DNA from: Eubacteriales bacterium
GTDB taxonomy: Bacteria; Bacillota; Clostridia; Oscillospirales; CAG-272
NCBI GenBank assembly: GCA_051867875.1
Contig: JBJDZG010000004.1
Coordinates: 12,832 to 76,831 of the forward strand
DNA: 64,000 nt
Reading direction: 5' to 3'
This document shows, in pieces, positions 52,163 to 64,000 of the stretch. Under the pieces are notes generated by a model. The model searched no databases and was not told where the DNA came from. It saw only the letters and a list, made by a program, of their open reading frames with translations. The stretch's first letter is position 1; each line of letters starts with the position of its first letter. A program made the translations under genes and the position numbers.

Positions 52163-52795
52163 TTATTTTATTATATTGAGTATCTCTTCAAAATGACTGA
52201 TGCTGTAATCCGCACTTTCGTAACCGTACGCATCGCCAAGAGCGATAGTCGCAAAGCCTCCTGCCTTGCCTGCGTCAACGCCCGCTTTGGCATCCTCAAC
52301 GACGTAACATTCAGAGGGTTGAAGTCCCAAGAACAGAGCGCCCTTGATAAACACCTCGGGGTCGGGCTTACTTCGGGTAATGTTATTTCCGTCGGAAACC
52401 GCATCGAAAAATTTTTCAAGTCCGATATATTTAAGTATTGCAGGGGTATTTTTGCTCGAAGAGCCTATCGCGAGCTTATATCCGCGGGCGCGGAGCTCAT
52501 TAAGCGTTTCCGTAACTCCCGGCAGTCTGTCATCGGGAGTAAGACTTTTAAGGAGTTCCTTGTAAATCTCGTTCTTCTTTGTGGCGAGAATCTGTTTTTC
52601 TTCATCGGAATACTGTCTCTCGGCTCGCTCAAGTATGATTTCAAGGCTATCCATACGGCTGACACCGCGCAGACGGTTATTTATCTTCTCGTCAAAGTAT
52701 ATTCCCTCTTCGTCCGCCATCTGCTTCCATGCAAGATAGTGGAGTCCGTCGGTGGATACGATAACGCCGTCAAGGTCAAATATAAATCCCTTCAT
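52163..52795 (-). CDS. pgmB: Beta-phosphoglucomutase (HAD family)
   Basis: FIFDLDGVIVSTD nucleophile motif, ...RGVSRMDSLE... cap region and VVEDAKAGVDAGKAGG. It lies 9 nt downstream of a GH65 phosphorylase gene, the classic pairing. Confidence 0.9.
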   Translation of the reverse strand: MKGFIFDLDGVIVSTDGLHYLAWKQMADEEGIYFDEKINNRLRGVSRMDSLEIILERAERQYSDEEKQILATKKNEIYKELLKSLTPDDRLPGVTETLNELRARGYKLAIGSSSKNTPAILKYIGLEKFFDAVSDGNNITRSKPDPEVFIKGALFLGLQPSECYVVEDAKAGVDAGKAGGFATIALGDAYGYESADYSISHFEEILNIIK

Positions 52796-52803
52796 ACAGC
52801 ACC

Positions 52804-55050
52804 TCAGATTTTATATACGAGCGTATTTTTGAGTATTCTCTCTTCGCCGTCGGGGGTGTGGATATTAACATTGCCCGCACCCGACTTTTTAAGCGTCAAT
52901 TCTCCGTTTTTCATACTCAGTGTAATCTTTATACCCTTATAAATGAAATGCGCCGTAACGCCATCAAAAAGCGTTCTGACGGGATTTACGCAAAGCGTGC
53001 CGTCATCTCTTACGGAAAGTCCGAAAATTCCGTAGATGACCGCAAGATATCCGCCTGCAAGACAACCGCTGTGAACGCCCTGCCATGCTACTCCGTGAAT
53101 ATCGTCAACGTCCATTTTGACGGTGTTGAGAAGATTTTTGCGGAATGAAAGAATCTGTTTATTCTGTGCACAGGCTATCGCGTGAACGGGGAACGTCAAA
53201 GAGGAGCTGACCTCGCACATATTCTCGTAATAGTCCCAGTTCTCTGCAAAGCGGCTTCTGTCAACGCCGACGTCAACCATTGTATAAAGCAGAATAACGT
53301 CGGGCTGTTTGATTATCTGGCTCTTGTGATAAAGTCCGCTCTTCTTCATCTGGAACTGCTTTAAGGTTCCCTTGCCCTGCTCTTCAAGTGAACGCGAGAG
53401 TCCGAAATATCCGTCAAACTGAGGAATAAGTCCGTTTTCGCATACAGGAAGATAGAGCTTTGAGGATATCTCCCTCATCTTTTCGATGAGCGAAGGCTCA
53501 ACCTCATACGAAAGCTCGCCGCAAAGAGAGATAAAGCGGTCAAATGCGAATTTTACACAATAATTCGTATACGCGTCATTATCAACGTATGGGTGATGCT
53601 CGTCGGTGCCCGTAACTCTGCAAATCTCATATCGGTCGCCGTTAAGGCTGACGCGGGAAATCCAGAATTTCAGACATTCGAGTATCATCTCCATACCGTA
53701 ATCAAGCATAAATTCTCTGTCGCCCGTATAGCGATAGTAATTTATGATACCGTAGGGAATGTCGGAATTAATATGTACCTGCATAAACGGGTGGCGCGCA
53801 TACTGCCACACTCTCTCATCGCCGTTTACGGACGAGCAGAAAGCGAACATAGCTCCGTCATATCCGTTTGCCTCGGCGTTTTTCTTCGCCTGCGGCAACA
53901 TTCTGTATCGGTACATTAACGCATTTTTAGCTGTTTTCGGCGCGGTAAGCAAGAAAAACGGCATCTGATGAATCTCACAGTCCCACCAAACGAACTGATT
54001 GTATCTTTCGCCCGTGAGTCCCTTTGCGGAAATTCCGTGAACGCTGTCATTCATCGAGGCGGAAATGGCGGTGTGATAGCTTGCAAATCTGAGATATGCG
54101 TCCACCTCATCGTCGCCCTCAATACTCACGTCCATCATTGCAAAATACGATTTGTATGCGGCAATATGTGCCTTTTTGAGAATAGCGTAATCAAGACCGC
54201 CCGATGCAAGCTTTTCCCTTGCACAATCGGTAATATCTCTTTCGGTATCGCGGTCGGTAATGATATAAGATATCTTCTCAAACGTATATGCCTTGGCGTT
54301 ATCACAGAGATATTCAATACCCACCGTGCCGTTGACGTCGTATTTTCCGAGCACTTTTCCGTGTGGGAATACGTGCTTTATTCCGTAGCAGGCTGAAAAA
54401 CCGTATTTGTTCGTCGCGTGATATCTGTGAAGAATATCAGTACCTTCTATGTGCAAAAGGTCCGTCTTTGTGATGAACTGACCTCCTGTCTTGACCGAGG
54501 TATCAATACCGGACATTATCATAACGGGCAGGTTATGATTCATCGGTCTTACCTTGATTTTCTGACAATAGAGGTGCTCATCGGCAAATGATGCAAAGCG
54601 TTCAAATACGAACTCGGTCCTGTTTCCCTCTCCGTCGTCCCATACAAGCTCTCTCGTATAGACGGCAGTACCCGGATTAAGCGAGCGATGCCATTTTACT
54701 ATCTTACCCTCCCAAGGAAAGAAGGTCTTTTCGCCCACGGTTATTTTTACCGTGAGAAAATCGTGCATATTGATACAGCTGTCCTGCTTTTCAAAGGTTT
54801 TGAGCTTTTCTTCGTCAAGGTAGTATTTCTTCATATACTCATTGTCCGCAAAAGGCTCCGTTACCTCTATTATCTCATCGATAAATCCGCGAACGAACGC
54901 ACCCTGAACGCGTTGAGAGCCAAACTCCTCAAAGCTGCCTCTGACACCCATATAACCGTTACCCGTAGTAAAAAGAGTGGCGAGAACGGGCTCGTCTGCT
55001 ATATCGTAAATACTTTCACTGAAATTTTTGTTTTTATCCAATCCGTACAT
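52804..55050 (-). CDS. Glycoside hydrolase family 65 disaccharide phosphorylase (maltose/kojibiose/nigerose/trehalose type; substrate unassigned)
   Basis: 748 aa. N-terminal TTGNGYMGVRGSFEE, a catalytic-acid region TGTDEHHPYVDNDAYTN and coupling to pgmB. Substrate specificity cannot be read from the sequence by eye. Confidence 0.88.
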   Translation of the reverse strand: MYGLDKNKNFSESIYDIADEPVLATLFTTGNGYMGVRGSFEEFGSQRVQGAFVRGFIDEIIEVTEPFADNEYMKKYYLDEEKLKTFEKQDSCINMHDFLTVKITVGEKTFFPWEGKIVKWHRSLNPGTAVYTRELVWDDGEGNRTEFVFERFASFADEHLYCQKIKVRPMNHNLPVMIMSGIDTSVKTGGQFITKTDLLHIEGTDILHRYHATNKYGFSACYGIKHVFPHGKVLGKYDVNGTVGIEYLCDNAKAYTFEKISYIITDRDTERDITDCAREKLASGGLDYAILKKAHIAAYKSYFAMMDVSIEGDDEVDAYLRFASYHTAISASMNDSVHGISAKGLTGERYNQFVWWDCEIHQMPFFLLTAPKTAKNALMYRYRMLPQAKKNAEANGYDGAMFAFCSSVNGDERVWQYARHPFMQVHINSDIPYGIINYYRYTGDREFMLDYGMEMILECLKFWISRVSLNGDRYEICRVTGTDEHHPYVDNDAYTNYCVKFAFDRFISLCGELSYEVEPSLIEKMREISSKLYLPVCENGLIPQFDGYFGLSRSLEEQGKGTLKQFQMKKSGLYHKSQIIKQPDVILLYTMVDVGVDRSRFAENWDYYENMCEVSSSLTFPVHAIACAQNKQILSFRKNLLNTVKMDVDDIHGVAWQGVHSGCLAGGYLAVIYGIFGLSVRDDGTLCVNPVRTLFDGVTAHFIYKGIKITLSMKNGELTLKKSGAGNVNIHTPDGEERILKNTLVYKI

Positions 55051-63349: not shown

Positions 63350-63400
63350 ATTTTCCTCCAAAAATATAAATTTTTATTAATTAATATGGCTGTGCCATAA

Positions 63401-64000
63401 TTAATTCGATTTGTACATATTGAGGTAAGATATCTCAACCTCAACGTCGTAGTTGCCGGGAAGCTCCCAGCCGATATTTGTGCTGCCGATTTTAAGCTGG
63501 TCAGCATTTGCTCCTGTCATCGCACCGTTCTGACGCGCTATTTTGAGAGCTTGTTTGATATAGGGAAGAATATCCACCTTAACGCTAACGTCTTTACCTA
63601 CAACTGCGGTGGGAATATTTACCGAGTCGGGCTGCTGTCCCGCAACGGACTGAAGAGAGAGCATATAGATGAATAATCCTGTGTTGTCCTCCTTGCCTCC
63701 GTCGTAAGAAGCAAAACCTGCGGGTGTACCGTTAAGCGCGCGGGTATCAAACATTGAGAAACCGAACCACATGGATTTGCCGTAGCTTTCACTGTCGGGG
63801 TTCATATCGGTAAGTGTGATGAACCACTGGAACTGTGCGGCATTAAGCTCGGTATTTACGGGGTAAAGCTCTCTGTCAACAAGACTGTCGCACTGCGTTA
63901 CCTTATAATCAACCTCCATGTAGAGATGCTCACAGCCGCTCGTGTCTGCGTTTACGGACTGTTCGATAAGAATATGAGGCCAGTTTTCAGTGCTGTCGGT
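63401..64000 (-). CDS. C-terminal part of a protein (5' end beyond the window) carrying the same uncharacterised domain as the SGNH lipoprotein C-terminus
   Basis: The reading frame stays open to nt 64000 (TDSTENWPHILIEQSVNADTSGCEHLYMEVDYKV...). WPHILIEQ, WFGFSMFD, YDGGKED and GWELPGNYDVEVEI align with WPHTLISQ, WFGITLWD, AEDAGKED and GFEVTGTYNVAAQI of the 783-aa protein. Confidence 0.75.
   Translation of the reverse strand, partial: TDSTENWPHILIEQSVNADTSGCEHLYMEVDYKVTQCDSLVDRELYPVNTELNAAQFQWFITLTDMNPDSESYGKSMWFGFSMFDTRALNGTPAGFASYDGGKEDNTGLFIYMLSLQSVAGQQPDSVNIPTAVVGKDVSVKVDILPYIKQALKIARQNGAMTGANADQLKIGSTNIGWELPGNYDVEVEISYLNMYKSN

Follow-up and report, generated by a model that had tools for sequence, protein, structure and literature searches.

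A putative ten-gene glycan utilization operon ending in a GH65 phosphorylase and a beta-phosphoglucomutase in a bacterium of the Clostridia

In a 64,000 nt stretch of DNA from Eubacteriales bacterium (GenBank assembly GCA_051867875.1, contig JBJDZG010000004.1), a family GH65 phosphorylase gene and pgmB, encoding a beta-phosphoglucomutase (beta-PGM), stand on the same strand as genes for four large surface or secreted proteins, which raises the question of whether these genes serve a single pathway and, if so, on which polymer. This stretch, referred to here as the window, is C4:12832-76831 of a genome of 31 contigs (95% complete, 1.50 Mb). The region in question, positions 52163-64000, is read as the downstream two-thirds of a ~17 kb, ten-gene catabolic operon for an ester-decorated alpha-glucoside glycan, resembling a Gram-positive polysaccharide utilization locus (gpPUL). 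This reading, with the steps proposed below, is considered somewhat more probable than its negation.

Six open reading frames (ORFs) make up the minus strand of 52163-64000, on which all features described below lie unless stated otherwise. An earlier annotation made from the letters alone (the sequence-only reading) had listed six co-directional genes here; all of its positions hold, and the gene identities are backed by Pfam and NCBIfam. The two cytoplasmic proteins, in which export signals were looked for and none found, are the beta-PGM (52163-52795; 210 aa) and the GH65 inverting alpha-glucoside phosphorylase (52804-55050; 748 aa). They are preceded by MPE774 (55122-57446; 774 aa), a secreted calcineurin-like metallophosphoesterase with a PF00149 domain and a signal peptide, SGNH783 (57458-59809; 783 aa), an SGNH/GDSL esterase lipoprotein with a PF13472 domain and a lipobox, REP1122 (59993-63361; 1122 aa), a surface protein with a signal peptide and no family match, and the 3′ two-thirds (199 aa) of the lipoprotein LP383 (63401-64000), recognized by BLASTP paralogy.

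It had also been noted that no transporter or regulator accompanies these genes. This is true of the window itself and false for the operon, because the window edge falls inside it. When the view was extended upstream, as had been recommended, the full LP383, an ABC importer, a third paralogue, and a GntR-type regulator were recovered from locus L002 (coordinates 233-7514); window-equivalent positions are used for them here. LP383 is 383 aa long with lipobox FSGC, its gene extending to 64552, and overlaps by 11 nt the gene of the third paralogue, LP348 (64542-65588; 348 aa, lipobox LPGC). Beyond these are two ABC permeases with BPD_transp_1 domains (65625-66497, 290 aa; 66501-67451, 316 aa) and the solute-binding lipoprotein SBP551 (67455-69110; 551 aa, SBP_bac_1), and upstream of SBP551, on the opposite strand, a divergent regulator combining GntR and periplasmic-binding domains. 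The SBP_bac_1 match and the two BPD_transp_1 matches together identify a CUT1 ABC sugar importer. No ATPase gene for it was found within the locus, and the ATPase is encoded outside it; an ORF on contig C21 has the ABC-ATPase Walker-A motif GPSGCGKST, as recognized from its sequence alone. Export signals, either a lipobox or a signal peptide, are present on SBP551, LP348, LP383, SGNH783, REP1122, and MPE774. The ten genes are separated by gaps of -11 to +71 nt, with the exception of 183 nt after REP1122. At 45.8% G+C against 46.6% for the genome, the whole cluster is in the 31st percentile among 17-kb windows, supporting the native composition reported previously, if not the figure of ~50% given for it.

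The gene order is conserved in ~30 loci of animal-gut Clostridia, five from members of the genus and 26 named loci, the latter from sheep, goat, roe-deer, mouse, chicken, and human gut metagenome-assembled genomes (MAGs) and from the cultured Pumilibacter muris CLA-AA-M08, in which the cluster is complete, with GH65 (62% identity) and pgmB. The order is the regulator on the opposite strand, the solute-binding protein, two permeases, LP348, in some cases an extra LP gene, LP383, REP, GH65, SGNH, the LP domain, and pgmB; it is kept around LP348 homologues of down to 43% identity. REP orthologues of 860-1130 aa are found in every syntenic locus, and pgmB orthologues come after GH65 in all complete loci. 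Within the genus, three LP copies are present in 6 of 23 species, and in these six the contig that carries them also encodes an orthologous GH65 (77-91% identity), whereas the regulator is absent from five complete genomes of the genus that do not carry the cluster. The surface genes are thus inherited with GH65 and pgmB on an all-or-none basis, as would be expected if, as proposed in the sequence-only reading, the genes work as a unit, with GH65 and beta-PGM at its cytoplasmic end and the surface proteins as its extracellular front.

A seventh genome of the genus, G709, has a natural deletion remnant of the operon (L071, G709:C28:1-12000), in which the regulator, a solute-binding protein truncated at about residue 504, a 95-aa C-terminal fragment of the phosphoesterase, and intact GH65 and pgmB genes are retained. 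No LP-family member was seen in the 18 other genera sampled from the family and order; in the class, just 10 of 399 sampled genomes have the family, this one included. Because it is present in six to seven of 23 species and in none of those 18 genera, yet also in distant Clostridia, the unit is accessory and patchily distributed, rather than lineage-specific and not imported, as had been supposed. In two more distant loci, L064 and L066, where GH65 identity is 51-53%, the GH65, SGNH, LP domain, and ABC importer genes are still linked; a CE2 esterase has been added in both, and L066 also has a beta-PGM.

LP348, LP383, and residues 479-779 of SGNH783 (57461-58375) are paralogues (BLASTP, 25-30% identity, E 1e-25 to 1e-31); against the C-terminal 300 aa of SGNH783, the truncated LP383 of the window gave 29.5% identity and E 2e-30, and LP348 gave E 8e-25. 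These ~300-aa domains have no sequence match in Pfam or the PDB, and PDB sequence searches with LP383 and SGNH783 returned nothing useful. An AlphaFold2 (AF2) model of LP348 was examined at the level of fold (27-sequence alignment, pLDDT 89.6). In a Foldseek search of the PDB with this model, the top 49 matches were all GH12 endoglucanases and xyloglucanases, followed by a GH11 xylanase; the GH12 matches had E 3.5e-9 to 1e-5, probability 1.0, and target-normalized TM-scores of ~0.45-0.55, the best being Thermotoga maritima Cel12A (E 3.5e-9). Against viral structures (BFVD), there was just weak jelly-roll and tail-fibre noise. The model has the beta-jelly-roll fold of GH12 (clan GH-C; Cel12A, PDB 3O7O/3AMH), and in both the last two strands come after a lone helix, the penultimate one ending G-W-E-V in LP and G-T-E-I/P in GH12. 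The LP domain is, however, ~60-90 aa larger, has no sequence or profile similarity to GH12, and has no conserved counterpart of the GH12 nucleophile motif E-x-M-I-W.

A profile HMM search of 1.84 billion representatives recovered 841 LP proteins, of which 248 had E ≤ 1e-30; this sets a minimum of 841 cluster representatives (50% identity) for the family, drawn from Bacillota, Bacteroidota, Planctomycetota, Verrucomicrobiota, and Hydrogenedentota. Across 120 diverse members, W170, G323, and E325 are 100% conserved, and D45, W79, W231, D238, N321, R240, D251, and H172 are 93-99% conserved. Of the two catalytic glutamates on adjacent inner-sheet strands that define GH12, the invariant E325 would correspond to the one at the acid/base-like position, within a matching modelled fold. 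LP domains are found fused to GDSL esterases, BD-FAE esterases, a dockerin, a T9SS tail, and a TIG domain. Although the region had been described as having no recognizable glycosidase, these lipoprotein domains, with their predicted GH12-like fold and invariant Glu, are read as candidates for the missing glycanases of the locus.

In Bacteroidota, LP proteins are encoded in small polysaccharide utilization loci (mini-PULs; L117, L123, L101, L098, L099) composed of an ECF sigma factor, an anti-sigma factor, SusC, SusD, a TIG lipoprotein, and the LP protein, and no other candidate glycanase was found in them. They are followed by a GDSL esterase in Agriterribacter and by GH78 in Parapedobacter. 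Separately, the SusC of the Ravibacter mini-PUL has an STN domain, and next to the Sphingobacterium mini-PUL come genes for a GntR regulator, an SSF transporter, and, by Pfam, an IlvD/EDD-family dehydratase, with ORFs downstream that by eye resemble an SMP-30-type lactonase and SDR dehydrogenases, which hints at an oxidative deoxy-sugar pathway.

REP1122 has no sequence match in Pfam, NCBIfam, or the PDB. At the N-terminus, a domain of ~200 aa is present as a tandem duplicate (HMM E 1.6e-49 and 5.8e-106), giving two ConA-like beta-sandwich domains (62648-63256 and 61889-62566), followed by a helical stalk of ~350 aa (60848-61906), a third beta-sandwich (60212-60826), and an acidic (GDEP)n linker with a C-terminal amphipathic anchor helix (59996-60172). 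As modelled with AF2 from residue 262 to 1122 (pLDDT 88.1), the protein runs, in the same order, from a beta-sandwich through the ~350-residue helical stalk to a second beta-sandwich, and ends in a disordered acidic linker and a helix. Foldseek matches of this model to GH16, L-type lectins, and PL7 are weak (E ~1e-3) and generic, since all three have the concanavalin-like fold, and no GH16 ExDxxE motif was seen when the translation was read by eye. REP1122 is probably a glycan-capturing, lectin-like protein. The (GDEP)n linker is encoded by a 12-nt in-frame tandem repeat (60099-60158), and ortholog lengths range over 1094-1131 aa.

An acidic Pro/Glu/Asp linker and an F-F-x9-F-F amphipathic helix end REP1122, MPE774 (55125-55292), and two more large secreted proteins (C16:30244-34131 and C26:107759-110959). 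This tail looks like a lineage-specific C-terminal membrane anchor, because the Pumilibacter muris orthologues, that of MPE774 included, end in a hydrophobic transmembrane helix and a basic Lys/Arg tail. The suggestion that the surface proteins have domains in common is therefore sound for the SGNH783/LP paralogy and the REP1122/MPE774 tail; a further beta-domain common to REP1122 and MPE774 is marginal (domain E 5e-4 in a search of 10 proteins).

The esterase domain of SGNH783 (58484-59080; PF13472, 74.8 bits; lipobox LVSC) contains the SGNH/GDSL catalytic blocks GDSIS (FGDSIS), GMND (FGMNDA), and NHP, with Asn in place of Asp in block V, and has a weak AxeC2-type NCBIfam match. In distant loci, the SGNH esterase (~440 aa; 443 aa) and the LP domain (365-389 aa) are encoded by separate, adjacent genes, which are fused in this genus, and the esterase is a core member of the operon. 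In MPE774, the catalytic domain (56667-57302; PF00149, 63 bits) has the five metal-binding motifs of calcineurin-like metallophosphoesterases, DTH, GDQTQDG, GNHD, SSHSP, and GHTH, behind a signal peptide ending MFAGA/ESE. It has no match in the PDB, by single sequence or by profile, and no subfamily was assigned by NCBIfam or PDB comparison. Because it is missing from many orthologous loci (G705, L073, L076, L081, and all Christensenellaceae-type, or type-B, loci), the phosphoesterase is an optional accessory module. In two others, L003 and L086, a 651-aa GDPD glycerophosphodiesterase is inserted.

The identity of the pgmB product is well supported, with 247.6 bits to the TIGR01990 equivalog (cut-off 189.4) and 94 bits to HAD_2. 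Likewise, the GH65 protein matches PF03632 at 262.5 bits (cut-off 27) and PF03636 at 129.3 bits (cut-off 26.6), and its closest PDB entry is the kojibiose phosphorylase 3WIQ (245 bits), followed by maltose and then glucosylglycerol phosphorylase. Residues were assessed as in a recent review, in the numbering of the kojibiose phosphorylase CsKP; the catalytic acid Glu and the phosphate site K/R330, S631, S632, and H675 separate phosphorylases from hydrolases (PMC11442529). In the alignment with 3WIQ (TGTDEH against GPDEFH, SAKGL, EVSSSL, GVHSG), the catalytic Glu, K330, S631, S632, and H675 are intact, giving a phosphorylase signature, as are W343, D344, K596, and Q597 of the -1 subsite. The fold, catalytic Glu, phosphate site, and -1 subsite are common to CsKP and to the maltose, nigerose, and glucosylglycerol phosphorylases.

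It is the +1 site that sets this protein apart. In the +1-site loop (residues 404-426; 53773-53841), W391, E392, and T417 are replaced with F404, C405, and a deletion, and loop 3 is shorter by 10 residues. The +1-site motif is WET in kojibiose phosphorylases and WEF in nigerose phosphorylases (PMC11442529). With this replacement and the motif E-C-S-W-R-K rather than EEAPxx, the protein does not match a kojibiose phosphorylase (EC 2.4.1.230), and without WEF and the full set of long loops 3, 7, and 11 it does not match a nigerose phosphorylase (EC 2.4.1.279). Its own loop pattern, with 3 short, 7 long, and 11 short, is listed for no characterized specificity. F404, W415, Y417, R419, H420, and P421 are invariant among 120 clade members, and position 405 is C in 90% and V in 10%; these relatives, down to 48% identity, are all MAG proteins. 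The GH65 comes from an uncharacterized clade.

Specificities were compared using the 24 correlated positions of De Beul et al. (PMC8537180), in which ten annotated GH65 subgroups correspond to ten specificities and motifs are given for MP, KP, TP, oligoNP, and T6PP. These positions read DVTENNCSWRHPMHPYQKKSHLSV in the present protein and DQISNNVSWRHPLHPY--QAHLSC in subgroup 7, a singleton (PMC8537180 supplement); 14 of the 24 are identical, or 17 when clade variants are counted, whereas CsKP, taken from the 3WIQ alignment, matches at seven. Both have S394, W402, R416-H417-P418, H485-P486-Y487, N338, H590, and S630, and the V392, L420, and Q585 of subgroup 7 occur as variants inside the clade; at N-loop positions 62-64, by contrast, the present protein is nearer to kojibiose phosphorylase. 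In the alignment, NP has E392, and GGP has I392, G394, and H-F-N at 416-418. TH and PGGHG are unlikely to form a singleton branch, because each has several characterized representatives (PMC8537180). By elimination, subgroup 7 would be the glucosyl-rhamnose phosphorylase Cphy_1019 (2012 work cited in PMC8537180 and PMC11442529), likewise an inverting GH65 phosphorylase paired with a beta-PGM; a difference is that the clade described here is embedded in a large extracellular machinery.

A second GH65 locus is present in the genome (C26:104999-123459; L062), with an oligoNP-like GH65 (P-I-A-T), an NP-like GH65 of 672 aa (W-E...F), and a second pgmB, 68% identical. It also encodes a 915-aa lipoprotein (beta-helix/discoidin-like by eye), a 1066-aa repeat protein with the FF tail, a response regulator and kinase, a solute-binding protein, and two permeases, and looks like an alpha-1,3-glucan system.

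The aglycone of the GH65 substrate is most likely L-rhamnose, in an alpha-glucosyl-rhamnose unit. In this genome, rhaB, rhaA, and rhaD are on contig C21. In G693, rhaD, rhaA, rhaB, rhaR, and rhaM adjoin the pgmB end of the cluster, and in G705 a GH78 gene, a GPH transporter, rhaR, and rhaBAD adjoin the regulator end. A rhaM gene is next after a GH65 of 51% identity in L065, and in two phyla GH78 neighbours genes of the LP family, once in a locus of the Clostridia and once in Parapedobacter. A literature search for new families degrading rhamnopolysaccharides found nothing relevant. Bacterial rhamnose-glucose surface polysaccharides with O-acetyl and phosphodiester decorations would fit all of the components.

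In the proposed pathway, the divergent GntR/sugar-binding regulator would control the operon, and the stalked REP1122 would hold the polysaccharide at the cell surface with its lectin-like beta-sandwiches. Three membrane-tethered LP domains (LP348, LP383, and the C-terminus of SGNH783) would depolymerize it, while the fused SGNH esterase would take off O-acyl groups and, where present, the anchored metallophosphoesterase would remove phosphate-linked substituents. Oligosaccharides would be taken up by the CUT1-type importer (SBP551 and the two permeases), the cytoplasmic GH65 would cleave the terminal alpha-glucosyl residue to release beta-glucose-1-phosphate, and beta-PGM would convert this to glucose-6-phosphate for glycolysis. 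Released L-rhamnose would enter the rhaBAD pathway encoded elsewhere in the genome. The target is probably an ester-decorated polysaccharide cut by the LP family, possibly of the glucose-rhamnose type. Much of this layout is that of described gpPULs with CUT1 importers and cytoplasmic glycoside phosphorylases: the regulator is divergent, the binding lipoprotein is large and of the LplA type, there are two permeases, and enzymes at the surface are combined with a phosphorylase and mutase inside the cell. A difference is that three of the conserved surface components, namely the LP and REP families and this type of phosphoesterase, fall outside the described CAZy and Pfam families.

A bolder extension is offered as speculation, and as a whole is considerably more likely to be wrong than right: that the LP family is a new glycoside hydrolase or lyase family with a clan GH-C jelly roll, an acid/base-like Glu, and a different catalytic partner, and that with it, REP, the SGNH esterase, and optional phosphodiesterases, gut Clostridia forage the O-acylated, phosphodiester-decorated rhamnose-glucose surface polysaccharides of other bacteria, alpha-Glc-Rha being split by the new GH65 clade.

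Several observations weigh against the proposed pathway. The similarity of LP to GH12 is at the level of fold only, leaving room for a purely binding role. PF01670, the Pfam model of GH12, gave no match in the genome at E ≤ 10, a search to which control genomes respond, and hhalign of the LP alignment with a genuine GH12 protein (L009, 2JEM-like) gave a probability of 0.7%; membership of GH12 was rejected for the LP family on these grounds, and the fold resemblance alone was retained. E168 was likewise rejected as the equivalent of the GH12 nucleophile, because it is Glu in just 62% of the 120 members; any catalytic machinery of the family would therefore differ from the GH12 pair. What the alignment suggests instead is an active-site-like constellation around the invariant Glu, in which another conserved carboxylate (D45, D238, or D251) may be the counterpart of the nucleophile. 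The equation of subgroup 7 with Cphy_1019 was reached by elimination, not by direct comparison. Rhamnose genes adjoin the cluster in just two of about 30 loci (32 scanned), and therefore this adjacency is supporting, not decisive; the carrier G700 (97% complete) has no RhaA, and two GH65 relatives (45-51%) adjoin GH38, GH63, and GH10 instead. In addition, there are two strong hairpins inside the cluster, at which read-through may be attenuated.

If the LP domains and REP1122 were non-catalytic, like surface glycan-binding proteins (SGBPs), the esterases would be the sole extracellular enzymes, and the locus would scavenge small acylated alpha-glucosides released by others. Beta-sandwich folds are common to carbohydrate-binding modules (CBMs) and lectins, REP1122 matches lectins as well as GH16, and in the LP family there is no GH12 sequence motif and the presumed nucleophile position is variable. 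Yet about 15 polar and aromatic LP positions, the invariant Glu among them, are kept at 20-30% identity over five phyla, a degree of conservation to be expected of an active site rather more than of a CBM, and the structures leading the Foldseek matches are GH12 catalytic domains, not CBMs. In the Bacteroidota mini-PULs, moreover, the SGBP slot is filled by the TIG lipoprotein, leaving LP as the only candidate enzyme. A binding-only role is accordingly thought unlikely, without being far-fetched.

The substrate proposed in the sequence-only reading was a teichoic-acid-like or phospho-glycan polymer, from which ester and phosphodiester decorations would be stripped, and whose kojibiose or nigerose units would then pass to the GH65. 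In a fuller form of this explanation, the esters would be D-alanyl or acyl groups, and glucosyl-glycerol could also be released. The secreted metallophosphoesterase and SGNH esterase of the operon would suit such a polymer, as would the GDPD of L003 and L086 and the kojibiose phosphorylase that is the closest PDB match of the GH65. Neither disaccharide is supported by the +1 site, however, in which F-C replaces the WET and WEF motifs and loop 3 is short, and nigerose is already provided for, because contig C26 carries the nigerose/alpha-1,3-oligoglucan GH65 pair. Nor does the protein match a 2-O-alpha-glucosylglycerol phosphorylase (EC 2.4.1.332), which has long loops: compared with 4KTP, around the glycerol site, W381 is replaced with F and Y572 with F566, and the loop with F395/F396/F409 is absent. 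The locus in this genome has no GDPD, a literature search on GH65 with teichoic acid found nothing relevant, and there is no direct support for a teichoic-acid-like substrate. The idea of stripping by esterase and phosphoesterase is partly supported: the esterase is a core component, and in relatives a phosphodiesterase module is sometimes joined by a GDPD enzyme. The phosphoesterase, which had been given a central part, is dispensable in many orthologous loci and outside the conserved minimal module. With the core LP and REP families also left without a role, this explanation is judged to be quite improbable.

The GH12 fold of the LP model could instead point to an acetylated plant hemicellulose or beta-glucan, with GH65 and beta-PGM serving an unrelated alpha-glucoside within the same operon. 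A dockerin on one LP family member, the CE2 esterases that adjoin the GH65 relatives of 51-53% identity, and the weak AxeC2-type match of the esterase are in keeping with this. It is nevertheless very doubtful, as no beta-glucosidase, GH94, or GH130 is present in any of the ~30 loci, and the linkage of GH65, LP, SGNH, and the ABC importer over deep divergence implies one pathway. That nothing but a common direction links these neighbouring genes, whose functions would be unrelated, a view to which the two strong internal hairpins lend some colour, can be dismissed as scarcely credible given the synteny in ~30 loci from several families, the all-or-none presence, and the deletion remnant.

The transcription signals are compatible with the operon. 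The sole canonical terminator of the cluster is on the 3′ side of pgmB (52111..52157), a 13-bp G+C-rich stem followed by CGUUUUUAUUUU (minimum free energy, MFE, -21.5 kcal/mol, z -3.76). A perfect 13-bp hairpin between the MPE774 gene and GH65 (55080..55111; MFE -30.8 kcal/mol, z -6.05) has no immediate U-tract, the stem being followed by GCAAAAAUUUUGUU, and may be an mRNA stability element or partial attenuator rather than a canonical terminator. In the 183-nt gap after REP1122, a hairpin with a 16-bp stem (59851..59885; -40.2 kcal/mol and z -5.58 for the 121-nt region) also has no U-tract adjacent. It had been said that the single-operon view would fail if the hairpins between the genes were efficient terminators, with independent regulation and unrelated functions; lacking adjacent U-tracts, the two internal hairpins are not canonical terminators. 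In G704 and G700, the gap between the phosphoesterase gene and GH65 is just 18-27 nt, and therefore these genes must be co-transcribed there.

When 51000-64000 was scanned with Rfam, the cluster itself gave no riboswitch or other RNA element; the one match was the alaS T-box, outside it. This T-box leader (RF00230, 116.5 bits; 51339-51562) is upstream of alaS (48613-51243) and has a near-consensus promoter, TTGACA-17-TAAAAT with TG, at 51601-51573. Between the operon terminator and the alaS leader, a 61-aa ORF, MANKSSKKALEQFKMQAANEVGV..., at 51722-51907 resembles an alpha/beta-type small acid-soluble spore protein by eye, suggesting a spore-former. Elsewhere in the window, positions 42001-46000 have 36-38% G+C against ~47% for the rest and may be an island or foreign insert. 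Outside the window, a 601-aa minus-strand ORF (L002:12562-14367; C4:88561-90366) combines MurB (FAD_binding_4, MurB_C) and WhiA (LAGLIDADG_WhiA, HTH_WhiA) domains, and is either a gene fusion or the product of a missed stop or frameshift.

Little is understood about the loci with which uncultured gut Clostridia forage for glycans, and surface proteins annotated as hypothetical hide the enzymes that choose the polymer. In this locus, three uncharacterized families, the GH12-fold LP family, the lectin-on-stalk REP family, and a distinct GH65 clade, are tied to one end-reaction, the release of beta-glucose-1-phosphate. Since the complete operon is present in the cultured Pumilibacter muris CLA-AA-M08, the targets of LP, REP, and GH65 are directly testable. 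If cleavage by LP is true, there would be a new CAZy family and an added GH65 specificity, and decorated bacterial or plant rhamno-glucans may be consumed in animal guts.

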